Below are positions 3,045 through 62,225 of a DNA stretch of 64,000 nucleotides, in pieces. Position 1 is the first letter of the stretch. The number at the start of each line of letters is the position of its first letter. Where the stretch lies: the IMG/VR virus record IMGVR_UViG_3300021400_000134. One strand, given 5' to 3'. The stretch comes from a virus. Its lineage: Duplodnaviria; Caudoviricetes. Below the pieces are notes generated by a model. It saw nothing but the letters and a program-made list of their open reading frames with translations. It had not been told where the DNA came from and ran no database searches. Both the position numbers and the translations under genes were made by a program.

Positions 3045-3641
3045 ATGGGAACTCAGTTCACAGATATATATAATCGCTTTCTTGGTAAAATCACAGATGA
3101 TATGTACATGGAATTAACTCCAGAAGACACAATGAGGGACTTAAGGTCCCTTTTAATTGATGCAATTCCAGGGTTTGAATTTCCTCGTAAGATACTAGAT
3201 GATTTTTCTATCGAAACTTTAGTTGTTAGAGAAGATGCGGTAGAAGAAGGGGATTTTGTTATTGGAGTTGTTTGAAATACTCCTGACGAAGAAGAGGATG
3301 ATGGAATTCCAGACGTATATATTGAACGCTCGCATTTTAATGTAGATTTAACGAGTGAAGAGATTAATATTCTTGCTTTACTAATGATGTGCGGTTGGCT
3401 TCAACGCCAAGTCACATCTATTGAAAATACTCGCATGAAATACAGCGGGTCAGATTTTAAATTTACCTCCCAAGCCAATCATCTTGCCAAACTATTAAAT
3501 TTATTGTCAGAATGCCAGAGACAATCATTCCATATGCAGCGTCTTTATAAGCGCAGACGCATCAACAGTGATGGATATATTGAATCCAACTGGGATGTTT
3601 TGAGAAATGGAATCTTTGGTGACTACGAAGTTAGGCATTAA
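3045..3641 (+). CDS. Putative head-tail adaptor (198 aa, code 4)
   Basis: Track ORFs 3045-3275 and 3384-3641 share a frame and are separated only by TGA; function from synteny. Confidence 0.65.
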
Positions 3642-3924
3642 TATTCCTGAGAGTTGTTTTAAGTCTGATATAAATAGACTTACAAATCAACTCTGGAAGT
3701 TAATTCCGATGAAAGAAAATGGAGAAAATTGATTAGAACAACTAAATACTGTTTTGATTGAAATTAGGGGATTATCAGAGATGTTTGCTTCAAATGATAA
3801 GTTTCTAATTCTTTTAAGTAAACTTGAGGGTTTACGAGTATCAGAGGATTTAGAATTTAGTACATATCGTAAAACAGTATTTGAATCAATTTCTTTATTA
3901 AGGGAGATGCTAAATGCCATATAG
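3607..3924 (+). CDS. Hypothetical protein (105 aa, code 4), absent from ORF track
   Basis: MESLVTTK...NQLWKLIPMKENGEN(TGA)LEQL...YRKTVFESISLL..., ends in TAG; fills the gap between its neighbours. Confidence 0.7.
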
Positions 3925-4906
3925 TACTGATAGGTCTCAATTTTCCGGAATAAATTTAATGGCAAATAGAATAAATTGGCATGGTGGGCAACCACAGCAA
4001 GACCGCATGATTCGAGATAAGCGATGGACATTAGATCATGCTACAAAATATTCTTATCAGGCTGCGAAGATAAAACATACCGATGCGGTTGACCAAGAAC
4101 AAGCGCCGGCATTAATTAATCCTGATAAGACAAAACAAAATTATGATGATAAAATTCTCTCTGTTGGTTATGAATATAGATACCAACCAGGAGATGTTTT
4201 TGATTGAATGAATACTGGTTCAAAATGAATAATTTATTTACAAGACTTAACAGAACTAGCCTATTTTAGAGGTGAGATTCGTCGTTGTAATTATACAGTA
4301 TCTTGGTTAGATGAAAATGGTGAGAAATATACTCAATATTTAGCTGTAAGAGGACCAGTAGAAACAAAGATTAATTTTATTCAAAAGAATGGTATTAGTG
4401 TAGACGAGCCTAACCATTCTCTTGATATTCTAATGACTAAGACTCCAGAAGCTCTGGAATATTTTAGACGTTATGCTAAATTCTATCTAAAAGGGATAGA
4501 CGAACATGATAAAAATACTTGTTGAAGAGTTGAAGCAACTGATAGTATTAGTATGCGCGGGGTGCTTCAAGTTGTTGCGGTAGAATATTATGCAAATGAA
4601 ACTAGAGATGATTTAGAGAACTCTCTTGTGGATGGATTAGTTATTGAGCCAGTTGATCCAAATATGATTGACGAGGATTTTGATAATTTGATTAAAGGTG
4701 AAACATTTATTAAACCGAGACAGGATTATAAGTATTTTTATAGAGGAAATGAGACTTCACAATGGAGTATTGATAAAAAAGTTCCTGTTAAACTAATTCC
4801 GCAAGGTAAGAAAGTTACATTGAAGTGGGATAGTGGTTATAGTGGACAATTTGTATTAAAGTATGGCTCGTCAGAAAAAACCATTGTGGTTGAGTCATTG
4901 TTTTAA
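3914..4906 (+). CDS. Putative head-closure/head-tail joining protein (330 aa, code 4)
   Basis: One frame with 3 TGA in Trp-like contexts (GDVFD-W-MNTGSK-W-IIY; C-W-RVEA); function from synteny. Confidence 0.65.
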
Positions 4907-4924
4907 AGGAGAAAATGGAGTATT

Positions 4925-5545
4925 ATGATAATTAAGAACTATTCAATACCACATTCTTCTTTCATGTCGGTTGATAAAGATTTAGAACTTATTACAACCT
5001 GAATGATGAAGAATAAGAATTTGTGTAAAATTCTATATTACACAGACAGGGATGCTCTTAGTAGACCAGCATTGACTGATAAACAGCGTGCAGAATTGAT
5101 GGGTAAAAATATTAAAATTGTTCCTAAATTATATGTTGATGGTAGTGTTTTAGCATATGTTATCATTTCTATGGATAATTTTACACCAACTGCAAATCCA
5201 CAATTTAGAGATAATATTATTACTTTTGATATTATTTGTCATTTTGACCAATGACATTTACAAGATTTTCAATTGCGTCCTTATCGCATTGCTGCTGAAA
5301 TTGATTCAATGTTTGATAATCAGCATCTAACTGGAATTGGCGAGATGCATTTTATGGGAGCAAGCCAGATTATTCTTAATGACGAATTTGCTGGATTAAC
5401 ATTAATGTATCAAGCGATTCATGGTGGAGAGGATAAGAAAAATGCCCCAAATCCACAAGACAATAAGCAAATGGTTGATGATTTTAATGAACTCTATGAT
5501 CAAGATTTTACACCATTAACTATTTTTAAATCATCGGATGAATAA
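4925..5545 (+). CDS. Putative tail completion/terminator protein (206 aa, code 4)
   Basis: Joins ORFs 5003 and 5273 across TGA (ICHFDQ-W-HLQDFQLRPYRI); function from synteny. Confidence 0.6.
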
Positions 5546-6267
5546 TGAAAGACATTGAACTTGCACTATTCACTGGAGTAGATATTCCTATTCCAGAGTG
5601 TCAGATAATAATTCATCAACCATCAATTAAAGAAATTTCTATGCTTGGTGAAAGATGGTTTTTAACAGGTGTTCAAGTTTTGTGTATAGATAAAGAGCAA
5701 TTTAAGAAGGACAATTCAGATTTATCTAATACTACTAATTTTCAAATATTTATGACAATAATGCATGAGAAAGAGGCTAGAGAAAGTAAAGAGAGCGTAA
5801 TAGAAGCTCTTTCTTTAATAGTTCCTAATTCAAAGGTCACTCTTACTCCAAGGTCATTATTGTTAAATTATAATGGCGCAAACATTATAATAGATGAAGG
5901 AAATTTTGATAGTTTTCAAGAAATCTTACGGCAAGTTTTTTGTTTAAAGAAAAAAGAGGATGATTTTAATCCAGCGAATGCGGCTGCTGCAAAAATCGCA
6001 GAAAAAATTAAAAAAGGTCGAGCTAAGGTAGCGCATTTAAAGGGTGAAGATGTGGGCAGCGTTTATGCACGCTATATATCAGCTTTATCTGTTGGATTAA
6101 AGATTCCAATCAAAGAATTAATAAATTATACAATTTATCAAATAAATGACCAATTAGAGCGTTTTGGATTATGAACTAATTGAGATTTAGATATTCGATC
6201 AAGACTTGCTGGGGCAAAAGGTGACGGCAAGCCTGAAGATTGAATGAGAAATATCCACAAGGATTAA
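5545..6267 (+). CDS. Tail assembly protein (240 aa, code 4)
   Basis: Extends past TGA 6172 through RLAGAKGDGKPEDWMRNIHKD to TAA 6265-6267. Confidence 0.6.
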
Positions 6268-6286
6268 AGAAGGAGGAAAAAGCCCA

Positions 6287-7357
6287 ATGAAATATGGTAT
6301 TCGTGACGTCGTTGACGTTGTACTTAGAGCCAAGGGTACAATGGATTTAGGAAACAAGCGTTTCTATAAGAATGAACCAGTATTATATTTTGATACACTT
6401 ACTACTTCAACATTAGAGGGCGCTTCTACCACTGTTTATGCACAGGGCGGTAAAGGTAATGCTCGTTTAATGGCTTGGGAAGGTGAACGTACAGTTACTT
6501 TCACAATGGAAGATGCATTGATTTCTCCAGAAAGTTTATCAGTTCTTACTGGTGCAGGATTAATTGAAGCTTCTGACGAAAAGCCTGTTTATCAGCATAT
6601 CGTTGAAACAACTGATGTTCTTCCAGAAAAAGATGGTAATAACTATGTTATTTATGTAGATAAAGAACCTTTCTTACCAGAACCAGATAGCGGTATTGTT
6701 GAAAATGAAAATTATGCTTGCGTAATGTTTACAAGAGATGGTGAAATTATTTCTGAACCATATATTGTTGATCAAAATGCAGAATCTAAGGCAGTAAAAG
6801 ATGAAGAAACTGGAAAATGGAAGATTATTGTTAATGAACATAAGTGCAATTTTGGTACAGCTAATTGCTTCCCAAAAAAGCCAGATAATTATATTCCATC
6901 AAATATTGAAGCAGACCAGCCATTGGCTAATGGTATTTTAATTGACTATTATCATCCAGTTAAGACTGGTGCAAAACAGATTGAAATTGATGCTGAAAAG
7001 TTTGCTGGTTCTTATTATCTTGAAGGTTCAACTCTTTGGAGAGATACAAATGGTGTAGACCATCCAGCAGAATTTATTATTCCTAACTGCAAGATTCAGT
7101 CTGCATTTACATTTACAATGGCTGCTACTGGTGATCCATCAACATTTACATTTACAATGGATGCATTCCCAGATTATACAAGATTCGATAAGAGTCATAA
7201 AGTCTTTGCCGTTGTTCAAATTATTGAATCTGAAACAACTGCTTCTGATGCTAATAATGACCTACACCGTGGTAAGACATGGCATGGTGGAAAGACTTAT
7301 GCTAGTGATTTAGCTGGTACAAGTGCTGATAACCATGATGACCCAAGTCAGGCATAA
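6287..7357 (+). CDS. Major tail tube protein (356 aa)
   Basis: VYAQGGKGNARLMAWEGERTVTFTMEDAL and FTMAATGDPSTFTFTMD resemble tail-tube motifs; strong SD; no TGA. Confidence 0.8.
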   Translation: MKYGIRDVVDVVLRAKGTMDLGNKRFYKNEPVLYFDTLTTSTLEGASTTVYAQGGKGNARLMAWEGERTVTFTMEDALISPESLSVLTGAGLIEASDEKPVYQHIVETTDVLPEKDGNNYVIYVDKEPFLPEPDSGIVENENYACVMFTRDGEIISEPYIVDQNAESKAVKDEETGKWKIIVNEHKCNFGTANCFPKKPDNYIPSNIEADQPLANGILIDYYHPVKTGAKQIEIDAEKFAGSYYLEGSTLWRDTNGVDHPAEFIIPNCKIQSAFTFTMAATGDPSTFTFTMDAFPDYTRFDKSHKVFAVVQIIESETTASDANNDLHRGKTWHGGKTYASDLAGTSADNHDDPSQA

Positions 7358-7370
7358 GAGGTAAGTAATC

Positions 7371-7598: not shown

Positions 7599-8726
7599 AT
7601 GGCGAGAGGACAACGAAATTTGACCTTTAAACCTAGTGATTTAGACAAAGTTTTGACAATTGAAGAGTTAACTCAGTATTGCGTAAATGTTATTAAAGAA
7701 ATTAGAACGAATGCTGGTTCTCAATACAGTGAATTAATAAATGATATAAAAAAATTAGAAAGTTTAGAATTAGAAGTAGAAAATTTAAAAATTGATAAAA
7801 ATAATAATGAAAATTATTTAATAAATATAGCAGATAAAATGTTAAAATTATATCATGAGGTTATTAATGTTAGTTTAAAACTCCAAAGATTGTTTCCCTC
7901 AACTTTAAATCTTGCTGAATATGATAAAATAGAATATGCCATTTATGTAAATGGAGAGCGATATTATATAGATTATGATGATATTAAAAATAGTGGAGCT
8001 TTTAGATATAGTGAAAGTAAAAATGCTTTAATGTTAAATTTAAATAAAGCAACAAAGTCTTTAAAAGAAAACATTTCTTTAAAACAAGGTCAATCTATTT
8101 TTAATATTATAAACAAACATTTTGATAAATTTTCAATAATGCTTGATAATACATATAAAGGTGGAGGAAAAATCAATAAAGGCCATAAAGCGGAAGCTTT
8201 TGAGGAACATCTCTCTTTACATCATAGTGGAGCTTATCAGTTTTTAAAAAACAAGGAATACTTGACAGAAATGATTGTTGATCATCGGCAAATGCTTGGA
8301 AATGAATTATTAACAGTTCCCTTTAATGAATGAGGTACTAAAGCACAAATGGCTAGTGGAGAACGACATGAGAGTATAACTGAAGCTTGACAACATATTA
8401 GATCAGCAAAAGGAACATTAAGAGGTACTGTAACGGGTGACGTAGGGAATGTTCAGGTAAAAGAAGGACAAGGTTCTTCTGCACAGGTAAAATTAACAAG
8501 TTTTACTAATTTAAAGTTAGGAGTTCAAATTTATTCTGCAATAATTGATCCAGAAAAAAACATTTATGAAATTGGATATAAATTAGCAAATTATATTTCT
8601 GAAACAGTTAAAAAGGATGCTGTAAAAGGATTAAATAGTAGCGCTCCTATTGAAGAATTAGACAATGATTTAATTGATTTTTTTGATAAACATAAAAAGT
8701 ATCATAAAATAGTTCATATTGGCTAA
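7599..8726 (+). CDS. AT-rich hypothetical protein (375 aa, code 4), possible PD-(D/E)XK-type nuclease
   Basis: Reads through 2 TGA to TAA 8724-8726; motifs KGHKAEAFE and TGDVGNVQVK. Confidence 0.55.
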
Positions 8727-8730
8727 AAAC

Positions 8731-8760
8731 TTGCTTTTTGATAAAATTTTTTGTTATAAT
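8731..8760 (+). promoter_or_regulatory. sigmaA-type promoter with extended -10
   Basis: TTGCTT-N18-TATAAT with TGn immediately before the -10. Confidence 0.6.
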
Positions 8761-8790
8761 AAAATAGAACATAATAGGAGAAATTATATC

Positions 8791-9315
8791 ATGGCAAAAA
8801 TTTCATTAACTAAATTAAAATTAACTCCAAAAGAAAATGTTCATACAATAACTTGAAATGAACAAGAAATTGAAGTTAAGCAATATATCTCTATTGAAGA
8901 TAAGTTAAATATGATTTCTGAGGTTTTAAATGCAGCCGCAGATGAAAATAAATTTTATAATCCGGGTAAAATTGATATGTTTTTTGCTTTAAAAACAATT
9001 GATTATTATACTAATGTTTCAATCACTGATAAGCAAAGAGAAAATCCAATCAAGTTATATGATAATTTTATCTCTTCTGGATTTTATACAGATGTTTTTC
9101 ATGCTATTCCAGAAGACGAAATTGGATATGTTTATAAGGTAATGATGGAAACAGTCGAACAGATTTATAAATATAATAATTCTGCTTATGGAATTTTAGA
9201 CGCATTAGGAACAGATTATAAAGATTTAGATTTCGATATTCAGAAATTAATTGGCGATATTAGAGATAAAAAAGACGTTGAGTTTCTAAATGACGTTATG
9301 ACCAAACTTGGTTAA
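8791..9315 (+). CDS. Putative tail assembly chaperone (174 aa, code 4)
   Basis: ATG 8791 after aggag; one TGA at 8854; directly upstream of the tape measure. Confidence 0.6.
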
Positions 9316-9345: not shown

Positions 9346-9360
9346 AGAATAGACATATTT

Positions 9361-9427: not shown

Positions 9428-12400
9428 ATGCCAAAACAGATAAATGTTAAGCTAGGTTTTGAGGCTGATACCTCGCAAGCGCGAAAACAAATAGCTGATT
9501 TGCAAAAATCGTTAGATGGTTTGTTATCTAGTTCTATTAAACAAGGTGCATTAACCGGTTTTGATAAAGAAGTATCTAATGCACAACAGTCAGTCTTAAA
9601 ACTAAAAACCGCAATTGATAATTCATTAAATGCGGATACGGGTAGATTAGATTTATCAAAGTTTAATACACAATTAAATAATTCTGGATTGACTCTTGGC
9701 CAATTATCTAAGGATATGAATAACTTAGGGGCTGATGGTCAGAAGGCATTTTTAAATTTGGCAAATAGTATTGTAACCGCCCAAAAGCCAATGGCAGAAT
9801 CTAATAAACTATTGGATAATATGTGAACTGCTTTAAAGAATACGGCAAGATGACAGTTGTCTAGTAGTTTATTACATGGATTTATGGGGGCGCTGCAAGG
9901 TGCATATGGATATGCCCAGGATTTAAATAAATCTTTAACTGATATTGCAATCGTTACTGGAAGGTCTACCGATCAAATGGCGGCGTTTGCAGAACAAGCG
10001 AATAAATCGGCGCAAGCATTAAGTGTCAGTACCACAGCTTATACTGATGCTGCTTTGATTTACTATCAACAAGGTTTGAGTGATGATGAGGTTAAAGCCA
10101 GAACTGACATTACAATGCAAATGTCGAACGTAACTGGAGAATCAGCTGAACATGTATCTAGTTATATGACAGCTATATGGAATAACTTTGCGGAAGGCAG
10201 TGAAAACCTTGACCATTTTGCAGATGTTATTACTGCGTTAGGTGCGAAAACTGCTTCTAGCTCAGAAGAAATCGCTAATGGTATGCAACAATTTGCGGCT
10301 GTAGCAGATACCGTAGGATTAAGTTATGAATATGCAGCAACCGCATTGGCAACTGTTGTAGCACAAACTCGTCAAAGTGAATCTACTGTTGGCAATTCAT
10401 TTAGAACAATTTTTTCAAGGTTACAGGGTTTGAAACTTGGCGAAACTCTTGAAGATGGCACCAGCTTAAATAAGTATTCTAAAGCTTTAGCTACTATTGG
10501 AGTTGATATTAAAGATCAAAATGGTGAACTTAAAGAAATGGATACTATTTTGAATGAAATTGGTGCTAAATGGCAAGCATTAACGAAAGATCAGCAGGTA
10601 GCATTGGCACAAACCGTTGGTGGCGTTAGACAATATACTAATTTAATTGCGTTATTTGATAATTGAGATGCTTTTCAAGAGAATTTACAAATTGCAAACA
10701 ATTCTGATGGTGCTTTACAGCAACAGGCTGATATATATGCTGAAAGTTGAGAAGCTGCTCAGAAAAGAGTTAGAGCAGCTTGGCAGGCTATTTATCAAGA
10801 TTTAATTAGTGATGATTTTTTTATTACTATTCTAAATGGTCTTGAAGCCATATTACATGGAGTTGATGGATTAATTGATTCTCTTGGTGGATTACCAGGA
10901 GTACTAAGTGGGATTGGTGTATTGGTAACAAGTGTTTTTAATAAACAGATTGTAGAGGGTTTAAAAAGCGCGCAGCAGCAATTAAAAGTATTTACAGGTA
11001 CAGCTCAAGCAGAAAATGATGCGATGGTTGCTTGAACAAATCAGTACTTACAAAATAATAGAATAAAAGATATCGCTGGAACCGGTGATATCCCATACGA
11101 AGATTTAGAAAACGGGTTATTAAAGCAAAAGCTTGCATTAACAATAGAGTTGCGTGAAGTATATGATGGTTTAAATGACATACAAAAGCAATACGCTAAT
11201 AGTCTATTAGAGTCTGTTGAAAACCAGCAGAGATTAACTTTAGAGGCTAAAAAAACAGAAGAAGCCACAAGAAGGTCTCAAGAAGATGCTATGAGATCTT
11301 TAAAAAATTCCGCCATACAGGGTGAGAATAATAAAATGATGAGCTTTTTAAATCAGTTTCGTTTAGATAATGGTCAGTTTGGTGGTGAACAAACAAAATT
11401 TGAACGAGGAATAGAAAAAATTGCATCTGCGGGAACTGTAAAACAACAAGAACAAGCTTATAATGAATTATATAAAGCAATGCTTAAAGTAAGTGATGGT
11501 TCTAAAGAAGAAGCAAAACTTATTGAAAATGTAATTAATAAAACTTTAGAACATGTTCAAGCTCAAAAAGAATTTACTAATCAAACCGAAGTTTTAGATA
11601 ATGAAACTGATCAATTTAATCAACGTTTACAAGAACTTGTTCAAAGCCATCATAATGGATATTTATCTACTCAAGAATTAATTCAGGCACTAGAAACCGA
11701 AAAAGCTAAATTTGATGAAACTTCAGAAGAAGCAAAAAAATTACAAATTCAAATAGATAAATTAGAAAATAGTAATAAAGGTGTTTTTGGTCCAGAATTT
11801 GCTCAATCATTTGTTAATACTACTAAAGGTATATCTCAATTGTCGATGGGATTCAATTCTTTAAAAACCGCCTGAGATACTATTCAAAATCCAGATGTAT
11901 CTGGATGACAAAAAGTAACTTCTGTTATTACTTCTTTAAGTTTTGGAATACCGGCAATTATAAATGGATTTAAAAGTTTAGGCGGGCTTAAATCCATTTT
12001 ATCTGGAATATCCAATGTTTTTACTGTTGGAACAAAAGCAAAAATAGAAGAAATTAATCAATTAGCTATTGCAAATGCAAAAGCAGCAATATCTCAAATA
12101 GAATTAACTAAGGCTCAAGCAGTCGGAAATTTAGTTCTTGAAGGATATGATATAAATACTGCTGAAAATATAGTAAATACTAAAATATTGGCACATGAAA
12201 AAGAAATATTAGCAGCAAAAGAAAAAATGGTTAAAGCTGGTCTAGAAGGTACTAATGCAGCAGCTTTAGCAAGTAAAGCGGCAATGTGAGAATTGTATCT
12301 TGTTATTGGTCTCGTTATTGCTGCCATTGCTTTATGGAATAAACAAGAAAAAGATAAAGAACAGGGATGAAAAGATCAAGATAAAGCTATTCAAGATACT

Positions 12401-22360: not shown

Positions 22361-22361
22361 T

Positions 22362-22631
22362 ATGAATATAAAAGAAACAATACAATTTGAAAATAATTTA
22401 TATGAATTAATTAACACTTGTGGTTTACCAGTAGATACAGCATTTTATGTATTAAAAAGTGTTTATTTAGATTTTCAAAAAACACTTTATGAATGCGCAA
22501 ACAATGAAGGTGAAACATATACTACAGAAGAACAGGTATATAAGTTATATAATGAGGAAAAGGAGAATGAAGATGAACAATCAATCAGTACAGATGCTTC
22601 AGAATATTCTGGAAGCGTTAATGACGATTAA
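22362..22631 (+). CDS. Small hypothetical protein (89 aa)
   Basis: SD ggagg; coupled to the upstream gene. Confidence 0.6.
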   Translation: MNIKETIQFENNLYELINTCGLPVDTAFYVLKSVYLDFQKTLYECANNEGETYTTEEQVYKLYNEEKENEDEQSISTDASEYSGSVNDD

Positions 22632-22761
22632 TACAAAGGGTAATGATACAATTACAATGAGCAATGTTTTACAAGCATTACAAAATGTAATTGATGTGGA
22701 ATCTAGAACTGGGGCTGTCGCACCTAAGACTCCAGAAATAGAACCTATTACAGAAGAGTAA
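22573..22761 (+). CDS. Small hypothetical protein (62 aa)
   Basis: SD aaggag at 22560-22565 favours ATG 22573 over the track start at 22489. Confidence 0.55.
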   Translation: MNNQSVQMLQNILEALMTINTKGNDTITMSNVLQALQNVIDVESRTGAVAPKTPEIEPITEE

Positions 22762-34120: not shown

Positions 34121-34166
34121 GGACAAATATAGTTAAAACTTCTTAAAATATTTTTAAATAGTATGA
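34121..34166 (+). promoter_or_regulatory. Putative late-promoter motif, copy 3
   Basis: GGACA-N8-TAA-N18-TAAATAGTATGA. Confidence 0.55.
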
Positions 34167-34186
34167 ATAAAGGAGGGATAAAAGAT

Positions 34187-47375: not shown

Positions 47376-48167
47376 ATGATCACAACTCCTGAAGAATATG
47401 TAAAATATCTATGGGGGATTGAAACGCAAGAGCCTCTTTATGGTAGCCAAGTAACAGCGGATGAACCAGACCAAGCAATTCTAGATTATCTGGAATTGCT
47501 TGGTATTAATCCAGCAGAATTGCAATTAGACGAGGAAGGATGTGTGCTAAATCCAACTACTGGTGAAGTAGTAATGCATACAGTTAATCCTTATAATAAT
47601 AAGCCAATTCTATCTGTTATTTTGCCATCTGATGAAAAGACTTTTGATGTTGATTTAGACTCTAGAGAGATTTCAGTTCCAACATTTTTAAGTGTTTCTA
47701 AAGACCATAGGGCTGAAACGATTTACTTCCTTGTGGATAGATATTATGACTATAAAGATTTATCTCAAACTTCTTGTATTATTGAATTTATTAATGCGGA
47801 AGGTGAAGGTGGATATTATGTAGTTCCATTTTATGACATTAGTTCATATCCAAGATATTTTGATGAAGATAATGTCGAACATGAAGCAAAAATGCTTATA
47901 CCTTGGTGCATTGAAGGCAATGCTACTAAGGGTTCTGGCCCAGTTCAATTTGCAATTAGATTTTATCAATTAGATGATGCAAATAAAAATTTCATTTATA
48001 ATTTAAGAACAAGAGTCGCAACAGCGCAAGTTCTTGAAGGAATGGATGAAAGTGTTTTGGATGCACATCTTGATACTGATTTGATGGCTAATTTATTGCT
48101 ACAAATTAATAATAAATTAGAAACCACCGAAGCAACAATTTATTGAACTGATTTACCAAAATATTAA
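47376..48167 (+). CDS. BppU-like baseplate protein (263 aa, code 4)
   Basis: DHRAETIYFLVDRYYDYKDL...GPVQFAIRFY, paralogous to the previous gene; reads through TGA 48144 to TAA. Confidence 0.7.
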
Positions 48168-53695: not shown

Positions 53696-54319
53696 ATGGC
53701 GCAATTAAATACATATACGGTATATTGTCATACCAATTTAATAAATGGAAAAAAATATGTTGGTATAACAAAAAATGTGCCAGAAATCCGTTGAGGATAT
53801 AATGGCATCAACTATAAAGGTTGTACTTTATTTTGAAAAGCGATAGAGAAATATGGTTGAAATAATTTTTCACATGATATTTTAGAAACTGGCTTATCAG
53901 AAAAAGAAGCTATAGAAAAAGAACGATATTATATAAAATTATGAGACACAATGAAAACTAATGGATATAATTTGACTTCTGGCGGAGAAATTAATAAAGA
54001 AATTGACGAAGAATATAGACAGCGTTTAAGAGATTCTCATTTAGGTATAAAGTATTCTGAAACTACAAGAAAGAACATGTCTAAAGCAAAAATGGGTCAT
54101 CCTGGTTATAATTGTAAACCTGTTTGAATGTGTGATAAAATAACACATGAAAAAATTAAATATTTTAAAAATTCTATTGAAGCAGAAAAATTTTTAAATA
54201 AAGGCAACACGCGTGCTCATATTGGGCACGTATGCCAAGGAAAAAGACCTTCCGCTTATGGATATTACTGAATGTTTGCGGATAAGGCAGAAGGAGGTGT
54301 TGACCTATCGCACAATTAA
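53696..54319 (+). mobile_element. Free-standing GIY-YIG homing endonuclease with NUMOD-like C-terminus (207 aa, code 4), absent from ORF track
   Basis: YTVYCHTNLINGKKYVGIT, RW, AIEKYGWNNF, EKERYYI, GYNLTSGG and C-terminal CQGKRPSAYGYYW; all 6 Trp are TGA. Confidence 0.9.
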
Positions 54320-55107
54320 AAGATAGCTTAATTACTGGTGATTTGCGAGTCACTGGTACGATATATGGAGACGCCAATTTGAGTTCACTTAATGCGAGCG
54401 GAACTGGATTGGGGTCTAATGGACAAGTTTTAAAATCAACAGGAACTGGATTGGCTTGATTGACATTGGGAAGCTTGGCTTCTAAAAGTACAATTTCTAA
54501 TCATTCTGTCACAATACCAACAGGAGAGACTAGTAGAACAGCGGATGTTGCAGTAAATACAACAACGGTTAACTCAATTACTGGTGTTGGTACATTGCCA
54601 AGTTTAACTGTTACGGCAACTGATGTAGTAACAGGCGGTACTACTACTGCTATTCCAAATATTTCAAAGAAAACTGTTGTAACGGGTGTTACTAAAAAGA
54701 CAGTTGTAACTGGAGGATCTACAACAGCAGTTCCTAACATTTCAAAGAAAACTGTTGTAACATCAGCAACTGCAGCAAAAGCTACCTATAGTTCTGGAGT
54801 ATTGACAATTTCCGATGGAAGTGTGACGACCGGTGATTCAGTAACAGTAGGAACTGCAATTAATGCTTATACAAGTTTAACAACTGGAGATAGTGTTACT
54901 GTAACAACTGGTGATTCAGTAACAGTTGGTACAGCTATTAATGCTTATACTGCTTTAACTACTTCAAGCATCGGTTCCGCTAGTAATTGAAGTGCTGGTA
55001 CATTACCAACTAAAGGTTCTAATACAACTGTTGCTACTGGAATTAAAACACAGCCTACATTTACAGTTACAACGCAAACAACAACATTAACACATACAAT
55101 AAGTTAA
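54307..55107 (+). CDS. Thr-rich needle-type fibre protein (266 aa, code 4), apparent ATC start
   Basis: SD AGGAGGTG 7 nt before ATC-GCA-CAA-TTA-AAA-GAT (xAQLKDSLITGDLRVTGTIYG); in frame with track ORF 54460; ends at TAA 55105-55107. Confidence 0.65.
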
Positions 55108-55119
55108 GGAGGTAATTAA

Positions 55120-56577
55120 ATGGCAAATGGTTTAATAGGAAAAATAACTGCCGGAGGTGGTACACATTTAATTGCCTCGACAGCTTACTTTACGTGTGCA
55201 ACGGCTAAGGCTACTGCGGCAAAAGTGGCAGCTGCTGCAGATACAAATTTAGATAATATAACTTTAATGACAGGCTTAACTATTTATGTAAAATTTACAA
55301 ATCATAATGAAGTAGCAAATCCAACATTGGCTTTATATAAATCAGATGGTACGACTAATTTAGTTGCTGCTAAACCTATTATGAGATATGGAACAACAAC
55401 AGCTTATCAAAGTGCTGCTGGTTCTTGGCGCGATGGGGCAGTAGTAGCTTTTACTTATGATGGAACTAATTGAGTTGAGCACTCGAGTATTGATGATAAT
55501 AGTAATGATACAGGATATTATGTTAGACATATCTATACAAATATTAAAGCTGGTTCTGTTGGTATTTTCCCTTATACAATAATTATGCAAAGAAATGACG
55601 GACGTTGAGATTCTATTGTAACAAGTAGTTCTACTGGTACGTCAAAAGCGTGTAATACAAATGGATTCGTATTAGGTCAAGTCATGCTAATGTATGCGAA
55701 TAAAACTTATGCCGCAGATGCTAATGTTGATACATATAATGTATGACAAATGCATAGCGGACTAGTTGATCATAGATATAGTTTTAATACCGCTAATAAT
55801 GCAACAAGTGGTACTGCCGCTAGAAAACCTATATATTTAGTTGGGACTGTTACTAATGGATTATTCTATTTAGATACAACTAAATGATGAGCTACTGCTT
55901 TACCGACAAGTGCTGATGGGAAAGTCTATATTTATATAGGAGAATCTTATGATTATTATAGACTTACGTTTACTGGGTATCATCCAATATATCATTATAC
56001 AAATGGAGCTTTAAGACTATACGGGGGAGACGCCTCAACGGTTAATGGACAAGTATTAGGTACATTAGCAACTAAATCCAGCATTGCTAATCATTCATAT
56101 ACGCCAGCTGGAAGTGTCTCCGTTTCTACTAATGCGACAACCAATAAAACAGCTACGGTTAGCCCAGCGTCTTCTGGAACGGCTACATATACACCAGCTG
56201 GAACAATTGCTGTAAATACTGCAGGTTCTACTGTTGCTGCAGATGATATTACCGCATGAACAACTAATACGCCAACAGCGGTTACTAAAAAAACTGTTGT
56301 AACTGGTACGAGCGCAACTACAATTAGCGTATCTTCTGAAGTTTTAACAATACCTGCTTCCGTTATAACGTCTGCAACTACTGGTGATAGCGTTAGTGTA
56401 ACAGCAGGTACAGCTGCATCATTATCATACACTGCACGTACAGTTAAATCTGGAGATGCCAGTTATAAATTTACTGGTACTGGTGTGCGTTTGGTTACTG
56501 GTAATATTGCGGTTCCTAATACATATACCGCATCATTTACCGGCACAGCAGCAACATTGACTCATACAGTTTCATAA
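55120..56577 (+). CDS. Tail fibre protein with needle-type C-terminus (485 aa, code 4)
   Basis: YFTCATAKATAAKV and SWRDGAVVAFTYDGTNW fibre motifs; tandem TGA-TGA at 55885-55890; C-terminal domain homologous to the previous gene. Confidence 0.75.
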
Positions 56578-56587
56578 AATTTTTTTC

Positions 56588-56616
56588 TTGACACATCAAG
56601 AAAAATTTCGTATAAT
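56588..56616 (+). promoter_or_regulatory. Perfect-consensus sigmaA promoter; the -35 lies within an inverted repeat
   Basis: TTGACA-N17-TATAAT; tttttcttga-caca-tcaagaaaaa palindrome. Confidence 0.8.
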
Positions 56617-56620
56617 ACAT

Positions 56621-56715
56621 ATAGGTTAAGATGGTAAGTCGATACCAGAATGAAAAGTTTAAAAAATGGATTGGGAATATTTAGCTGGAAAATCCTTATC
56701 ATCTTAATCTATTTT
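56621..56715 (+). ncRNA. Candidate structured small RNA or leader
   Basis: ataggttaagatggtaag pairs with cttatcatcttaatctat (18 bp, 2 G-U); starts at the expected +1 and ends in tttt. Confidence 0.4.
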
Positions 56716-56746
56716 AAAAAATCGCCTCTTATTCCAAAAAATAGGA

Positions 56747-56790
56747 GGGAGGGGGTAAGTTTTAAATCTCTTACCTCCCATATTTTTTTA
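56747..56790 (+). terminator. Terminator-like hairpin
   Basis: gggagg(gg)gtaag / cttacctccc followed by a T run. Confidence 0.6.
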
Positions 56791-56804
56791 TAGGAGGATA
56801 CAAC

Positions 56805-57758
56805 ATGGCGGATATAAAACAGATAAAGGTAGGCACTACTACCTATGATATAAAAGATGGTACCGCTAGAGAAGCATTATCTGAAAAAGTGTCTAAAGCT
56901 GGTGACACCATGACAGGAAACTTATGAATAAGTAATGGTTTAACCAAAGGAACAAACCCAAGTTCTGATACCACTCGCTATGTATCTTTTGTTGATGGTG
57001 AAGGAATCGCTGTAGATAATAGAACAGGTGCGATTATTAACCAGATAAAAACAGATGGAACATCTTTTACTGGAATTTATGCCTATGATTTTACTGCTGA
57101 TTCTACTCAAGCCCAAGTTTTAAGAACATTTAAACCGCAAGGCGGTAATGGATATTCAAATGTTAGTAGCGCTGATGTTTCTAATGCGGTTTTAAGAAAT
57201 ATTGGTTATGGTACAGGCTCTCCTAGTGGTGGCAGTGATGGAGATGTTTATATTCAATATAATACAACTTCCACACATCCATTTTTAGATTTAGTTTATC
57301 CAGTGGGTGCAATTTATTTATCTACTGTTAATACAAATCCTGGGACTTTGTTTGGAGGAACTTGAAGTCAAATTAAAGACAGGTTTTTGCTTGCGGCAGG
57401 TGATACTTATGCTGCTGGAGGTACTGGTGGTGCTGCAACAGTAACGTTAAGTAAAGCTAATATGCCGGCTCATACTCACAGTAGAGGCACCATGGAAATC
57501 AAAGGTAGTTTTCGTATTAATGATGATGGCAATAATGCTGGTCTTGATGCTGCTAGTTCTGGAAGCGGAGCCATTAGCGCGGTAAGCGGAACAGGAACAG
57601 GTTCAGATGTAGATGGAACTGGATGAGCAGTAACGAAAGGTTTTGATTTTCAAGCTTCTAAGAATTGAAGCGGGGCAACATCTTCAGAAGGCTCTGGTAC
57701 TGCGCATGAAAATATGCCACCATATCTTACTGTTTATGTTTGGCAAAGGACTGCATAA
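56805..57758 (+). CDS. Short fibre with tail-collar/T4 gp10 C-terminal-like domain (317 aa, code 4)
   Basis: YPVGAIYLSTVNTNPGTLFGGTWSQIKDRFLLAAG...MPAHTH...HENMPPYLTVYVWQRTA. Confidence 0.8.
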
Positions 57759-57771
57759 GGAGTAATATAAT

Positions 57772-58842
57772 ATGGCTGTTTATGTAGGAAGTAGTTGAGT
57801 AGAATTAGATAGATGGTCTGATGCTACTGGTTATGGTAATAATGCTGAATGAAGACTAATGGCATATTCCAGACAAGGCGATGCAACAAGCAATAGTTCA
57901 ACAGTTTATTTTAAATGACAGGTAAGTTGTTCTACCGGCTCTGTTTATAATTATGATGCTCATTATTCGAGTGTTTCTGGTACTGGCCCAATGGGGGACG
58001 GTCATAATGCAACACAAACCTGAGCTTTTGGAAGTGTACCTGATACGAGTTGGCATGAAGTTACTGGCGATTCTTCTGATATGTATTGGTCAGGATTGAA
58101 ACATAGGGCAGATGGAACTTGTTCTCTTACTCTAAATGCTTCTGGTACAAGGTGGAATAATTCTAGTTTTAGTACAAATATTAGTATTACTTTACCGACA
58201 ATTAGTAGAACCTATACTGTTTCATACAATGCTAATGGAGGAACAGGCGCCCCAAATAGTCAAACAAAAACGCAAAATGTTACTTTAACATTATCAAGTA
58301 CAAAACCGACGAGAACCGGTTATACTTTTTCTAAATGAAATACCAAAGCAGACGGTTCTGGCACTAACTATAATCCAGGAGCATCTTACACTACTAATGC
58401 TGCACTTACGCTATACGCGCAATGAACAATTAATACCTATACAATTACTATTAACCCTAATGGCGGTTCATTTACTTCAAGCAAAAATAGCACAGCGCAA
58501 TCAACGGCTCAATCTTATACAGTAAATTATGGCAGTAGTATTACAAATATTACTGCAAGTCGTTCTGGTTATATGCCAGCTGGATGATTTACTGAGTCTT
58601 CTGGTGGAACAAAAGTTATAAACAATGGTGGAAGTTTAAATTCAATTTCTTCATCTCGTACTATATATGCACAATGGACAAAAGAAGACCCCCCACCAGA
58701 CCCAATTTATGATGTTTATACAAAAATTGGCGGAACATGGGTGCCAGGAGTGATTTGAATTAAAGTTAACGATGTTTGGTATAGAGGCTTAGAAACAACT
58801 CTAAAAGTTAGTGGTTCTTGAAGAAAAATGAAAGCGCAATAG
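57772..58842 (+). CDS. Virion adhesin with InlB B-repeats (356 aa, code 4)
   Basis: YTVSYNANGGTGAP...KPTRTGYTFSKWNTKADGSG...TLYAQW, followed by a second repeat; DUF859-like N-terminal region. Confidence 0.75.
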
Positions 58843-58858
58843 AGAAAGGTGGTAGAAT

Positions 58859-59515
58859 ATGGCAGCGGTTAAACAAATTAAAATTGGAAACACAAATTAT
58901 GATTTAAAAGCTCTCAATGCTGCTAATCAAAACCAAAGTGGTGCAGTAGTAAGAGATATACAATATGGCACTGCAGCTCCAACAGGCGGTTCTGCGGGAC
59001 AGATGTATTTACAATATGTTAATACAGATACTGAAAATTTATATTTATACGCAGAAGATACCGCTGCAGATACTACAGGAGTGGCTGATAAATATTACAG
59101 TAAAAGTGAAGTTGATGCTATGATTGCTAATCTTACTAATAAAACAACCTGACATAACTATGCTTGAGGAGGCAATACATCTTCAGGTCAAACTGTAACT
59201 ATTACATGTTCTGGTCCTGGCTTTATTATAATTTCAGCTTTTATTAGAGCTAATAATAGTACAGATAACTATGGTCTTTTAGCTACCTCTATATCTAAAT
59301 CAGATAATAATGGTTCTTCTTGGAACGAAATTTCTAGAGAAGAACATAGAAAACATGGATCAGGTTATTCTATAGCTCCTGCTGCTTTTGCTTCAACAGG
59401 AACTTCTACTTCAAGTGCTACAAGATTTAAAATTGAATTTAATAGGTCTTATGAGGGAACTCATTATTGAAGAATAGAGGTTCTTTCTGTTGGATGTACT
59501 GTAACTAAATTATAA
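58859..59515 (+). CDS. Receptor-binding candidate, conserved N-terminus and variable head (218 aa, code 4)
   Basis: MAAVKQIKIGNTNYDLKALNAA; reads through TGA to TAA 59513-59515. Confidence 0.75.
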
Positions 59516-59529
59516 GAGGATAATCGATT

Positions 59530-59946
59530 ATGGCACAAAACAAGTATATTAAGCAAAATGGTGAAGTAATATACCCTATTACGAAAACTGAAAATGTATT
59601 AAATAAAGCTGGATTGGATTGTTTTGGTTGATGTAATGGCATAATGTGATGTTACGCAACTAGAAGTTCTACCAGTACGGTAGATTGAACTTTAAATGCA
59701 AATTTTGGTTCTAATGGAATAAAGATTAATACTTTAAAGATGGATGGAACTGTGCAAAGGGTTACTTTTACGTCATCTTTAGCTTCAACAAACTATGGGG
59801 TTTGAGTTTCAGCAGAAGTTGGTGGAACAGCCAGCGAAATTCTTGGCGTATATGGTAGAACTACAAGTGGTTTTGCCATCGATTGTGCGAATTATAATGG
59901 AGCTGCAACTCAACCAGTCCAAATAAGTATTTTAATTATATATTAA
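59530..59946 (+). CDS. Small fibre-tip/lectin-like protein (138 aa, code 4), absent from ORF track
   Basis: MAQNKYIKQNGEVIYP...VTFTSSLASTNYGVWVS...RTTSGF; 4 TGA. Confidence 0.7.
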
Positions 59947-59966
59947 TTAAAGAAAGGTGATAGAAT

Positions 59967-60056
59967 ATGGCGGCTGTAAAACAGATAAAAATAGGTAATA
60001 TTAATTATAATATGCTGCTATATTTAACAGTTTACATGTGAAGAAGAACGGCATAA
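59967..60056 (+). pseudogene. 29-codon internal-deletion relic of a collar-domain fibre gene
   Basis: MAAVKQIKIGNINY fused in frame to NMLLYLTVYMWRRTA (compare NMPPYLTVYVWQRTA); SD retained. Confidence 0.75.
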
Positions 60057-60072
60057 CTAAAGGAGGTAAGAC

Positions 60073-61077
60073 ATGGCTACACTTGGAACTTCATGAACTA
60101 ATATAGGAAGTCAAAGTTTCTCTGTTGGCGGTTATGGTCATACCGCCTACATATATGCAAAATTAAACCATCAATCTGGATTAACCTCTTATATTGATTT
60201 AGAATTAAGAATTAATTATAGTGTTTGATTACAATCTTATGATACAGACTTTTATTTAACCGGTTATGGATGATTAGGCTATGCCTATAGAGAATGAATG
60301 AGTGCTGGAACATATACGATTATGTCTTCTAGCATAACGGTAGGACATGACTCAAATGGAAATGCATCCTTTGCAGCTCAAGGTGGTTATGAATACAAAG
60401 GAATGGGTGTCAGCGCAACCACATTCTGAAGTAGTACCTATAGTCTGCCTAAAATTACTGTAAATTATACAGTAACTTATAATGCGAACGGTGGTTCTGG
60501 CCAACCTGGAAACCAGACCAAAGTTCATGGAACAAATTTGACATTATCTTCAACTAAACCTAGTTGAAGTGGACATACATTTAAACATTGAAATACTGCG
60601 GCGAATGGTTCTGGTACATCTTATAATCCAGGAGGAACATATTCTACAAATGCGAATGTTACATTATATGCACAATGAGATAATGAAACATATACAATTA
60701 CATACAATGCAAATGGAGGAGATGGCGCGCCAGATACTTCAACTAAAGTTTATGGTAGTCCAATGAGATTATCTACAATAACCCCAACGAGAGCAGGGTA
60801 TACGTTTTTTAGATGAAATACTGCTTCTGATGGAACTGGACAAGATTTTAGTCCAGGTGGATTATTTGGAATAGATGCCACTACAACATTATATGCTATT
60901 TGAATACCGAATGGTACTGCGCCGACTGGTTTGTTTGATTGCTACACTGCAATCAAAGGAGCTGGACAATATACTCCTTGCTTTATATGGATTAAAGTAG
61001 GAAGTACGTGATATTTTGTTAAAAAAACTGCGGTAAATGTCGGCGGGACATGGAAAACTGTAAGTAACAAAGGATAG
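60073..61077 (+). CDS. Virion adhesin with two InlB B-repeats (334 aa, code 4), paralog of 57772
   Basis: YTVTYNANGGSGQP...WNTAANGSG...TLYAQW repeated; 11 TGA and 2 TGG; missed by the ORF track. Confidence 0.8.
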
Positions 61078-61086
61078 GAGGAGAAT

Positions 61087-61743
61087 ATGGCAGCTGTAAA
61101 ACAGATTAAGATAGGTAATACAAACTACGATTTAAAAGCATTGAATGCGGCTAATCAAAATCAATCAAATGCTGTTGTAAGAGATGTCCAGTATGGAACA
61201 GCTACTCCTACTGGCGGAAGTGCTGGTCAAATATATTTACAATATACTAATACAGATACCACCAATCCCTATGTTTATGCTGAGGATACTCCTGGAACTG
61301 AAGTTAATGTCAGTGATAAATATTACAGTAAAACTGAGGTTGATAATAAATTTGCTTGAAAAAAATTTGGTTCACATAGTGGAGCAGATAATTGAGATAT
61401 AACTTCTTGTTGAAACCAATGTCAAGAATTATATATTGTTGTTAGTAAATACTTTAGAGGTTCTAACACTTCAGCGAATGAAGTCATAGAATTACAATGT
61501 CACGTATTAAAACAGCAGGTTGAAGAAGATTGGACTAGTTCATACAATACTGGAAAAATTGTATTTATTCCAGCTGGAAATAGATATAATAATAATCAAG
61601 GAAATAGCAGTATTTGAAATGCCCTTTTTAGATTACATAATGGTAATGGTAATGTTTATCTTCAGTTAAACGAATTATTTTGTGTATCACTCGCTTCAAC
61701 AAATCAGAATGGCTCAGGGTATTATATATTATATTGAAGGTAA
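61087..61743 (+). CDS. Receptor-binding candidate (218 aa, code 4), paralog of 58859
   Basis: First ~88 aa highly similar to 58859; the C-terminal part is unrelated by eye. Confidence 0.75.
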
Positions 61744-61748
61744 TTATT

Positions 61749-62225
61749 ATGGCACAAATACAATATTTAAAAAAGAATGGGGAATTAATATATCCTCATA
61801 TTTCAGTTGACCAAATATACCCAGTGGGGAGTATTTATATGAGCATAAATAACGCGAATCCTGAAGACCTTTTTGGTGGAACATGGGAACAGATCCAGGG
61901 AAGATTTTTACTTGCAGCTGGTGGTGGTTATAATGCCGGTGCAACTGGAGGAGAAGCTAATCATACGTTAACCTCTAACGAAATGCCAAGTCATTATCAC
62001 TCTTTTCAATGGTCTGCTTCTAATTCTGAATATGATGCTGGAGTTAGTGGTAGTACAAATCCTTGAAATTTTGGTAATTTAACAGATGAAGGACATTCTG
62101 TTATGGTACACTGAACATATAATGGTAGTGAAAGGCAGGGTAATACCAGCAGCACCGGCGGAGGCGCAGCACATAACAATATGCCACCATATTTAGTAGT
62201 ATATGTTTGAAAAAGAACAGCTTAA
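61749..62225 (+). CDS. Short collar-domain fibre (158 aa, code 4)
   Basis: MAQIQYLKKNGELIYP N-terminus like 59530, plus YPVGSIYMS...GGTWEQIQGRFLL...HNNMPPYLVVYVWKRTA like 56805. Confidence 0.8.

Follow-up and report, generated by a model that had tools for sequence, protein, structure and literature searches.

UGA is, on the evidence of its codons, decoded as tryptophan in the phage described here. The window, i.e. the whole stretch of 64,000 nucleotides that was analysed, is the virion-gene (late) arm of a large uncultured tailed phage from the rumen or gut. Judged by near-complete relatives, which measure 138-178 kb, the complete genome would comprise roughly 140-180 kb. Our overall explanation, to which we assign a probability of about 0.9, is that UGA means tryptophan in the late arm, that the host uses the standard code, that the other arm of the genome avoids TGA, and that a phage tRNA(UCA) is charged by the host TrpRS while RF2 competes at UGA.

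Reading frames and gene content of the window

When read with table 11, the window is covered to 68% by stop-to-stop ORFs of 100 aa or more, the longest of which comprises 716 aa. If TGA is taken as a sense codon, coverage by the same measure amounts to 96.5% with a longest ORF of 2,861 aa, whereas taking TAG as sense gives only 76%. With table 4, 38 genes were obtained, all on the + strand and with a longest product of 2,836 aa, of which 36 end with TAA, two with TAG and none with TGA. These genes contain 199 in-frame TGA versus 121 TGG codons, together 1.57% of all their codons, while the G+C content of the stretch is 33.7%. Thus the ORF fragments parted only by TGA, to which the first-pass annotation had drawn attention, are real. 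Since frames of 1,000-2,800 codons lack TAA and TAG at 34% G+C, and since the same frames are kept across dozens of IMG/VR contigs, their sequences exclude a random origin.

We give almost no credence to the view that the TGAs are true stops, be it in pseudogenes under decay, through errors in the assembly or with slight read-through. Its only support is the fragmented appearance of the genes under table 11. However, up to 2,836 codons are free of TAA and TAG, and the frames persist in dozens of independent contigs, where a given site may have TGA in one and TGG in another. A gene with as many as 24 TGAs would yield essentially no full-length protein if it depended on leaky read-through. The genes are as follows:

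3-458, +, head gene, cut by the window edge; 0 TGA
476-1201, +, head gene; 0 TGA
1220-2341, +, predicted major capsid protein (phrog_4088 at 4.5e-63; AlphaFold/Foldseek); 0 TGA
2432-3019, +, head gene; 0 TGA
3045-3641, 3914-4906, 4925-5545 and 5545-6267, +, recoded virion genes; 9 in-frame TGA together
6287-7357, +, probable major tail (tube) protein (phrog_2729 'virion structural protein' at 1.3e-51); table-11 ORF
7599-8726 and 8719-9315, +, recoded genes preceding the tape measure; 3 in-frame TGA
9428-17938, +, tape measure protein of 2,836 aa (phrog_4211 at 1.8e-60); 24 TGA, 9 TGG
18053-22360, +, giant distal-tail gene; 11 TGA
22266-22631, +, small gene among the distal-tail genes; 1 TGA
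22489-22761 and 28762-29097, +, small TGA-free genes among the distal-tail genes
22777-26310, +, giant distal-tail gene; 12 TGA
26314-28746, +, giant distal-tail gene; 15 TGA
29101-34077, +, giant distal-tail gene; 16 TGA
34163-35050, +, recoded gene, 295 aa; 2 TGA
35072-36829, +, TGA-free gene, 585 aa, no Pfam or PHROG match; 3 TGG
36962-44884, +, giant virion gene, 2,640 aa (phrog_14959 at 1.9e-62); 17 TGA, 23 TGG
45204-47354, +, TGA-free gene, 716 aa; 7 TGG
47376-48167, +, tail-fibre-like recoded gene; 1 TGA
48322-51246, +, tail-fibre-like repeat protein (NTWQAN and GQW.TPP repeats); 19 TGA
51314-53683, +, tail-fibre-like Laminin_G_3 protein; 15 TGA
53696-54319, +, free-standing GIY-YIG homing endonuclease, 207 aa (phrog_314 at 2.6e-34; PF01541)
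54343..62225, +, recoded tail-fibre and receptor-binding genes, among them Gp10_C paralogues (56805-57758, 61680-62225) and Flg_new repeat proteins (57772-58842, 60073-61077); 47 TGA together, including a tandem TGA-TGA (55885-55890)
62435-62815 and 63051-63716, +, TGA-free genes at the window end; 4 TGG together

The assignment of gene 1220-2341 as an HK97-type major capsid protein is based on predicted structure: although the AlphaFold model is of low confidence (pLDDT 61), its top Foldseek matches were solely HK97-fold capsid/encapsulin chains at E values of about 1e-4. For gene 6287-7357, the place before chaperone-like genes and the tape measure suggests the role of tail tube. It is free of TGA from its ATG at 6287, while a longer, TTG-started frame (6206) contains one TGA at codon 14. 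The tape-measure gene joins 25 table-11 fragments across its TGAs.

The amino acid read at TGA

Within the window, TGA and TGG replace each other in repeated motifs, and all the exchanges claimed earlier were recovered at their positions. The NTWQAN repeat has TGG at 48757 and 49081 and TGA at 49573, and the GQW.TPP repeat TGG at 49453 and TGA at 49993. The collar paralogs swap reciprocally in GGTW (TGA 57363, TGG 61884) and VYVW (TGG 57741, TGA 62208). The TGA at 53858 in the KYGW motif of the GIY-YIG gene was likewise confirmed, as was the tandem at 55885/55888, the sole one in the window.

Codons aligned to the TGA and TGG sites of the window were then taken from two sets of relatives that do not recode TGA, one TAG-recoded and one using the standard code. 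Opposite TGA, TGG accounted for 277 of 393 codons in the former and for 54 of 95 in the latter, which is similar to the control of window TGG sites (439/693 and 97/164, respectively). Compared with the complete standard-code relative G006, the partners of TGA were TGG (33/85), followed by gaps (9) and TAT (8), with no glycine codon among the 15 commonest. TGA and TGG together make up 1.35% of the window's aligned codons versus 0.96% TGG in the standard-code relative, where TGA is absent from 11,812 aligned codons. A site-weighted likelihood over 84 sites favoured tryptophan (-198 nats) over the runner-up, tyrosine (-292), by 94 nats; phenylalanine followed at -304, and glycine was outside the top six. 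The first-pass interpretation of TGA as tryptophan, rather than glycine, selenocysteine or leaky read-through, is borne out by both the codon alignment and the likelihood.

Individual genes give the same picture. For seven of the nine TGA sites in genes 3045..6267, almost every TAG-recoded or standard-code relative has TGG. In gene 3914-4906, codon 98 is TGG in 31/31 TAG-recoded and 7/7 standard-code relatives, and its TGA codons 105 and 204 align to TGG in relatives as well. Codons 142, 413 and 441 of the tape measure match TGG in 5/5, 5/5 and 4/5 standard-code and in 23/24, 14/19 and 17/19 TAG-recoded relatives, and in the distal-tail genes TGA and TGG swap at identical sites among the TGA-recoded relatives L076-L083. 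All six tryptophan codons of the GIY-YIG nuclease are TGA (53792, 53834, 53858, 53942, 54125, 54269); when set against 22 homologues, three of them occupy tryptophan columns, of which W33 and W55 are near-invariant and column 192 is mostly W. A homologue with 39% identity, located in the TGA-poor arm of relative G002, has 0 TGA and 4 TGG.

It is consequently very improbable, given the lead of tryptophan in the likelihood, that TGA encodes another residue such as glycine (code 25), selenocysteine or cysteine. Glycine is frequent among relatives at tape-measure codon 133, a variable site, yet it is rare at TGA-aligned positions of the TAG-recoded relatives in general (GGT 8, GGA 6 of 393). In the code 25 phages of Absconditabacteria and Gracilibacteria, TGA stands for glycine and about 90% of the genes contain it in frame. 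Membership in this group was rejected, given the rarity of glycine and an other arm that is nearly TGA-free in relatives.

A probable suppressor tRNA beyond the window end

The first-pass annotation was right that the window lacks a suppressor tRNA: neither a tRNA nor an Rfam family was found in it, even with intron-tolerant ARAGORN. Gene 63051-63716 served as anchor for retrieving the downstream site from relatives, and the search beyond the window was successful, with a tRNA(UCA) present in contig L149 and in the TGA-recoded relatives G001-G004. As read in L149, which is 98% identical to the window over a shared 1.7 kb (62344-64000), it lies approximately 3.7 kb past the window end on the late-gene strand, and G001-G004 carry it at the same site. 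G004 has the gene without an intron, G001 has a variant whose variable arm is long, and in L149, G002, G003 and others the gene is split by an intron. In most close relatives this group-I-like intron of 206 nt sits between U34 and C35, and 20 IMG/VR contigs carry its core. At least 15 of 17 distinct intron-split copies yield the UCA anticodon, the cloverleaf pairs across the intron with compensatory changes in 33 of 66 pairs, and in silico splicing turns the L149 copy into a perfect tRNA(tca).

A small group I intron between anticodon positions 34 and 35 is found in the tRNA-Leu(UAA) of cyanobacteria and plastids. The phage intron resembles it in position, in the U before the 5' splice site, in the G at the intron end and in the conserved cores AGACUAGA and GAAGAUAUAGUCC. 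In contrast, it resides in a phage opal-suppressor tRNA, its splicing is predicted, and its Rfam score is far under the gathering threshold (RF00028, 16.6 bits against 50, E = 0.053 in a 331-nt search, with no match in larger searches). Group I identity is thus weak by Rfam, and we call the intron group-I-like.

The best bacterial match of the tRNA is tRNA-Trp(CCA) with 71% identity, closely followed by a tRNA-Gln with 70%. RF1 and TrpRS, which the first-pass annotation had supposed might be encoded elsewhere in the genome, did not turn up in the relatives searched: no RF-1 domain was detected in G001-G004 or the partial G005, and no match to the TrpRS family in G001-G004 or G006. Since the tRNA has G73 as well as C35 and A36, and a phage TrpRS was not found, it is probably charged by the TrpRS of the host.

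ARAGORN labels the UCA tRNAs 'SeC', and the long variable arm of the G001 copy is as in tRNA-Sec or tRNA-Ser, both of which would speak for a residue other than tryptophan. However, in bacterial tRNA-Sec the acceptor/T arrangement is 8/5 and the D stem measures 6 bp, whereas the acceptor and D stems of the G001 and G004 tRNAs comprise 7 and 4 bp, respectively, and the G004 and spliced L149 copies are ordinary class I tRNAs. Furthermore, selenocysteine decoding concerns few UGA sites aligned to Cys/Sec, each with a SECIS element. The 199 Trp-aligned sites of the window, 1% of its codons, are far above what it allows, and no Rfam family reaches the gathering score there. It was rejected on these grounds.

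Two genome arms, host code and related systems

TGA appears to be concentrated in late genes, with the other arm readable in the standard code, as seen in G001 and G002; the window itself covers late genes only. In these two genomes TGA/(TGA+TGG) is 0.03-0.2 in the other arm versus 0.4-0.85 in the virion arm, and the G001 arm at 20-58 kb contains 32 ORFs of at least 100 aa that are intact under table 11 (stops TAA 29, TAG 2, TGA 1). From a published model, the TGA-poor arm is probably the early arm. That this arm is almost TGA-free in near-complete relatives suggests a standard-code host.

TGA use is uneven among the genes of the window as well (permutation p <= 5e-5), where ten TGA-free genes hold 21 TGG combined. 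The four head genes (3..3019; 7 TGG, 0 TGA combined) are TGA-free also in G001-G004, in which the orthologues of the other TGA-free genes have 0-1 TGA: the tail-tube candidate 0 TGA and 3 TGG, gene 35072-36829 0-1 TGA, gene 45204-47354 1 TGA versus 7-12 TGG, and the last two genes 0-1 TGA. The capsid gene avoids TGA in every TGA-recoded relative examined (G001-G004) and is without in-frame stop in 14 of 15 relatives sampled over all three code states. The base following TGA did not point to selection against RF2 (p = 0.21 versus TGG).

Mycoplasma and Spiroplasma and their phages use code 4 natively, reading UGA as tryptophan uniformly across the genome and in the host by a tRNA-Trp with anticodon UCA, and lack RF2. 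A host of such a Mollicutes-like kind, with no code switch in infection, we consider unlikely. The A+T-rich genome, the negative searches for phage RF1 and TrpRS and the labels of MAG bins holding relatives ('Tenericutes' in one case, 'Erysipelotrichaceae' in two) would agree with it; the bin labels are mutually inconsistent, however, and the relative in the 'Tenericutes' bin is 67% identical and outside the TGA-recoded group. Such a host would impose no split between the arms, and thus the split with ORFs intact under table 11 counts against it; G001 and G002 lack the uniform usage of a native code-4 phage. In addition, these phages encode their own tRNA(UCA), either the standard code or TAG as glutamine is found in relatives with 50-70% capsid identity, and in all TGA-recoded relatives examined the capsid gene avoids TGA. 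The TGA-recoded group spans 83-100% identity, except for L019 at 70%.

A standard-code host, the reading we prefer, also has precedents. TGA-to-Trp recoded gut and rumen phages, the clades Agate and Jade, were described by Borges et al. (10.1101/2021.08.26.457843; later Nature Microbiology), as the first-pass annotation correctly stated for apparently standard-code hosts, and the present phage is a further example of this known phenomenon. Those phages are likewise large, A+T-rich and from animal guts including those of cattle, read TGA as tryptophan in structural and lysis genes with replication genes in the standard code, include one clade in which standard-code, TGA-recoded and TAG-recoded members are mixed, and carry a homing endonuclease with strong TGA bias; TGA suppressor tRNAs were found in just 35% of their code-4 genomes (10.1101/2021.08.26.457843). 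Jade phages possess RF1 and TrpRS, which the relatives searched here lack, and the resemblance to Agate concerns genome size, source and code mix only. Borges et al. mention neither an intron in the suppressor tRNA nor avoidance of the recoded codon by the capsid gene.

CrAss-like phages and Lak megaphages read TAG as glutamine in late genes (Yutin 2021 PMC7886860; Devoto 2019 PMC6784885; Peters 2022 PMC9523058). They share with our phage the confinement to late genes, apparently standard-code hosts, phage-borne suppressor tRNAs and, in Lak phages, intron-bearing tRNAs; the meaning glutamine for TAG is shared with the TAG-recoded relatives of our phage. They differ in codon, amino acid and lineage (here a 2,836-aa tape measure and a predicted HK97-type capsid), and Lak phages encode RF2. 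For code 15, proof from peptides has been reported (Peters et al. 2022, PMC9523058).

Under the explanation favoured here, the host would translate by the standard code, and the other, probably early, arm could be read by the unmodified host since TGA is avoided there as a sense codon and as a stop alike. The phage would supply its own tRNA-Trp-like tRNA with UCA as an anticodon that is formed only once the intron has been removed by splicing, and accumulation of this tRNA would lead to read-through of the in-frame late-gene TGAs. Since a phage release factor was not found, host RF2 is probably still competing at UGA. Such competition would explain why TGG alone is used for the major capsid protein and the probable tail tube, which are the virion's most abundant proteins.

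Reading of TGA in the window

A first-pass annotation, made from the sequence alone, had proposed that this phage reads TGA as tryptophan. The recoding of TGA in the window is confirmed. Under the standard code (table 11), ORFs of 100 aa or more, counted from stop to stop, span 68% of the window and the longest comprises 716 aa, while with TGA as sense codon they span 96.5% and the longest reaches 2,861 aa. With TAG as sense, ORF coverage is just 76%. The window has a G+C content of 33.7% and all of its genes lie on the plus strand. If called with TGA as Trp (table 4), the genes number 38, contain 199 in-frame TGA and 121 TGG codons and stop at TAA (36 genes) or TAG (two genes). TGA and TGG together account for 1.57% of the codons, which is an ordinary tryptophan content. 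On re-reading of the window, every coordinate of the first-pass annotation proved right. Among these are the sites at which TGG and TGA swap reciprocally within internal repeats and between the Gp10_C paralogues, the TGA within the KYGW motif of the GIY-YIG gene and the tandem TGA at 55885, the only tandem of the window.

That the encoded residue is Trp is supported by alignment to homologues, a check the same annotation had suggested. Window genes were translated with TGA as X and the codons of relatives were read at the aligned sites. Opposite window TGA, TGG was found in 277 of 393 aligned codons of TAG-recoded relatives and in 54 of 95 of standard-code relatives, and window TGG sites gave the same rates (439/693 and 97/164, respectively); Tyr and Phe codons were the next commonest partners of TGA. 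If the complete standard-code relative G006 is taken alone, TGG is again the commonest partner (33/85), followed by gaps (9) and TAT (8), and no Gly codon is among its 15 commonest partners. Where three or more non-recoding relatives are aligned, Trp is the most frequent residue at 12 of 18 TGA and 14 of 22 TGG sites. A site-weighted likelihood over 84 sites yielded -198 nats for Trp, -292 for Tyr and -304 for Phe. The GIY-YIG endonuclease, as an independent family, agrees with this; compared with 22 homologues from a general protein collection, its TGA codons fall on the near-invariant W33 and W55 and on the mostly-W column 192.

Within aligned proteins, TGA plus TGG make up 1.35% of the window codons, compared to 0.96% TGG in G006, which has no TGA in 11,812 aligned codons. 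As many window TGA sites, moreover, stand opposite Tyr, Phe or Leu codons or at variable positions, the phage may on balance have gained Trp since it was recoded.

For annotation the consequence is practical: table 11 splits the virion arm into about 80 fragments and loses the giant tail proteins, which makes TGA as Trp obligatory here. The virion module was identified by PHROG and Pfam matches.

Gene content of the window by PHROG and Pfam matches
Window, plus strand: virion structural proteins
Window, plus strand: tape measure protein, 2,836 aa
Window, plus strand: giant distal-tail proteins of 1,435, 1,177, 810, 1,658 and 2,640 aa
Window, plus strand: Laminin_G_3 protein
Window, plus strand: two fibre proteins with Gp10_C domain
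Window, plus strand: two proteins with Listeria-Bacteroides repeats
53696-54319, plus strand: free-standing GIY-YIG homing endonuclease

The gene at 1220-2341 is tentatively assigned as HK97-type major capsid protein by its predicted fold, a low-confidence model (pLDDT 61) whose top Foldseek matches are all capsid or encapsulin chains. A sequence-profile search of the capsid alignment against the PDB gave no match, nor did Pfam on the first ten window genes or megablast of 25 kb of the window against the INPHARED phages. A tblastn search with the 716-aa protein delivered a single weak match.

Uneven TGA use among genes and genome arms

TGA use varies between the window genes above chance (permutation p <= 5e-5). 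Ten genes contain 21 TGG codons and no TGA. Neither the first four genes, among them the capsid gene, nor the probable tail-tube gene at 6287-7357 contain TGA in any of the four TGA-recoded relatives compared. Furthermore, among 15 sampled relatives covering all three code states, the capsid gene is free of in-frame stops in 14; only the TAG-recoded relative L027 differs. We infer that the recoded codon is selected against in the proteins of highest abundance, and this avoidance points to a lasting cost of suppression in a host keeping RF2. Host RF2 would keep competing at UGA, with which the avoidance in capsid and tail-tube genes is consistent. The base after TGA does not differ from that after TGG (p = 0.21) and thus provides no supporting bias; T after TGA is weakly depleted if compared to all codons (p = 0.02).

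The two arms of the genome differ as well. In G001 and G002, two near-complete TGA-recoded relatives, a crude gene call gave a TGA/(TGA+TGG) ratio of 0.4-0.85 for the virion arm and 0.03-0.2 for the other arm. Following the published model, the TGA-poor arm may be taken as early or replication arm. Between 20 and 58 kb of G001, this arm contains 32 ORFs of 100 aa or more, the longest of 1,301 aa, that table 11 leaves uninterrupted and that stop at TAA (29), TAG (2) or TGA (1). Thus the arm can be read with both codes, as one would predict if a standard-code host has to translate it before any code change. The GIY-YIG endonuclease occurs in both arms: all six Trp codons of the late-arm copy in the window (53696-54319) are TGA, while in G002 the TGA-poor arm has a copy of 39% identity (114993-115565) with four TGG and no TGA. 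Consequently, the choice of Trp codon follows the genome arm even in a mobile gene.

The suppressor tRNA and its intron

The first-pass annotation saw no suppressor tRNA in the window, and this is borne out: Rfam families, tRNAs and intron-bearing tRNAs were all absent from it. It had also named tRNA-Trp(TCA), RF1 and TrpRS as candidates beyond the window. Relatives do encode a tRNA(UCA), but RF-1 (PF00472) was not found in G001-G005, nor TrpRS (PF00579) in G001-G004 and G006. G004, another TGA-recoded relative, carries an ordinary 72-nt tRNA(UCA) with G73. In G001 the same tRNA has a well-paired, 23-nt long variable arm and comprises 95 nt in total. It lies on the late-gene strand, about 3 kb downstream of the homologue of the window end; the G004 gene is found on the same strand further down, and the same gene end precedes both. 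An exact-pattern scan for the G001 variant gave no match beyond G001. The TAG=Gln relative G010 possesses a 94-nt tRNA(CUA) with an odd variable-region insert (G010 47560-47653). Such a class II form, as in G001 and G010, is not expected of a Trp or Gln tRNA.

The contig L149, 98% identical to window 62344-64000, carries at the suppressor site a tRNA(UCA) gene that is split between U34 and C35 of the anticodon.

Intronless and split tRNA(UCA) genes
G001 58412-58506 (= L161:13540-13634), minus strand: intronless tRNA(UCA)
L149:14687-14966: split tRNA(UCA), pre-tRNA of 280 nt, about 3.7 kb past the window end
L149:14687-14720: exon 1, 34 nt, ends in U34
L149:14721-14926: insert, 206 nt, ends in G
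L149 from 14927: exon 2
L154:14278-14546 (G002): split tRNA(UCA)
L165:12385-12674 (G003): split tRNA(UCA)

Spliced in silico, the L149 gene yields a perfect tRNA(tca) cloverleaf; the predicted exon junction joins ...GGUCUU to CAACACCG... and the anticodon reads UCA. Besides G002 and G003, other contigs carry a tRNA gene split at the same site. A pattern scan detected the insert core in 20 IMG/VR contigs; of 17 distinct copies, at least 15 give the anticodon UCA. When 13 copies are aligned, pairing of the tRNA stems spans the insert, with compensatory changes in 33 of 66 predicted pairs. The Rfam group I model RF00028 matched the insert over its full length, yet weakly: when 331 nt were searched, the score was 16.6 bits and E = 0.053. 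Rfam on 10 kb of L149 gave no match and missed the split tRNA as well, and a 41-kb multi-locus search missed the intron again. ARAGORN in standard mode also overlooked the split tRNA(UCA). Because the intron splits the anticodon, the suppressor escapes standard tRNA finders. The intron mode of ARAGORN placed the intron one base off with anticodon GCA; this call was rejected, since it deprives the intron of its terminal G and conflicts with the UCA of intronless homologues.

One intron copy (L151:5482-5877) is enlarged by about 116 nt inserted into a peripheral loop. In another contig (L250:99-3902, IMGVR_UViG_3300031992_000025) the split tRNA(UCA) ends a 12-gene tRNA array and is not placed after late genes. 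In three TGA-recoded relatives, ARAGORN further called tmRNA-like genes within the tRNA arrays; their tag peptides start with ANF(I/V)K.

tmRNA-like genes called by ARAGORN
G002 147276-147625, minus strand: tmRNA-like gene
G003 138397-138751, minus strand: tmRNA-like gene
G004 132745-133054, minus strand: tmRNA-like gene

Similarity to bacterial tRNAs is a near tie (Trp 71%, Gln 70%) and hardly helps to type the tRNA(UCA). Judging from G73 and C35 A36, the host TrpRS would charge the tRNA(UCA). One might speculate that the code change is gated by splicing, as the sole UGA decoder would come from a pre-tRNA lacking an anticodon until a group-I-like intron self-splices. If so, when or to what degree late genes are translated would hang on splicing, and capsid and tail-tube proteins, being abundant, would stay TGA-free to escape the gate. 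We consider this unlikely, at roughly one chance in ten, and favor a passenger intron, because the sister phages G004 and G001 have intronless copies.

Relatives and published recoded phages

Many relatives of the window phage are present in IMG/VR, and MAG records that also contain relatives are labelled as rumen- or gut-derived. Near-identical contigs occur in the IMG rumen samples 3300021256 and 3300001480. The labels of these MAG bins (L265-L274) name Treponema, Tenericutes, Erysipelotrichaceae, Clostridia, Bacillota and Lachnospiraceae; being mutually inconsistent, they were dropped as host calls, for which they are unfit, and the contigs of the family are probably mis-binned. Near-complete relatives comprise 138-201 kb with 22-33 tRNA matches each. 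Three coding states occur in this one family (L001-L075, 50-100% capsid identity). TGA-recoded members are close kin of the window (mostly 83-100% identical in the capsid), while TAG-recoded members are 57-70% identical, with Gln the commonest partner of their TAG (325 of 1,114 aligned positions). G006, a complete genome of 175.6 kb with terminal repeats, exemplifies the standard code.

Recoding of TGA to Trp and of TAG to Gln has been described in large gut phages of standard-code hosts, including cattle-derived Agate phages; there the recoded codons cluster in structural and lysis genes, single clades contain all three codes and an intron endonuclease is TGA-biased (Borges et al., 10.1101/2021.08.26.457843). 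Thus the window represents a further case of a known phage type, possibly within one of the clades named there. TGA suppressor tRNAs were detectable in just 35% of the code-4 genomes of that study, which a split anticodon may help to explain. The study mentions neither an intron in the suppressor tRNA nor avoidance of TGA in capsid genes. The additions to the published picture are an intron-split suppressor tRNA and TGA avoidance by the virion proteins of highest abundance. For Lak phages, tRNA introns of unknown type were reported. A full-text literature search of incomplete coverage found no description of an intron-split suppressor tRNA in a phage; since the coverage was incomplete, this absence is only a weak indication of novelty. 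With the standard code, TGA as Trp and TAG as Gln together at 50-70% capsid identity, the family is a good system to study code evolution over short distances.
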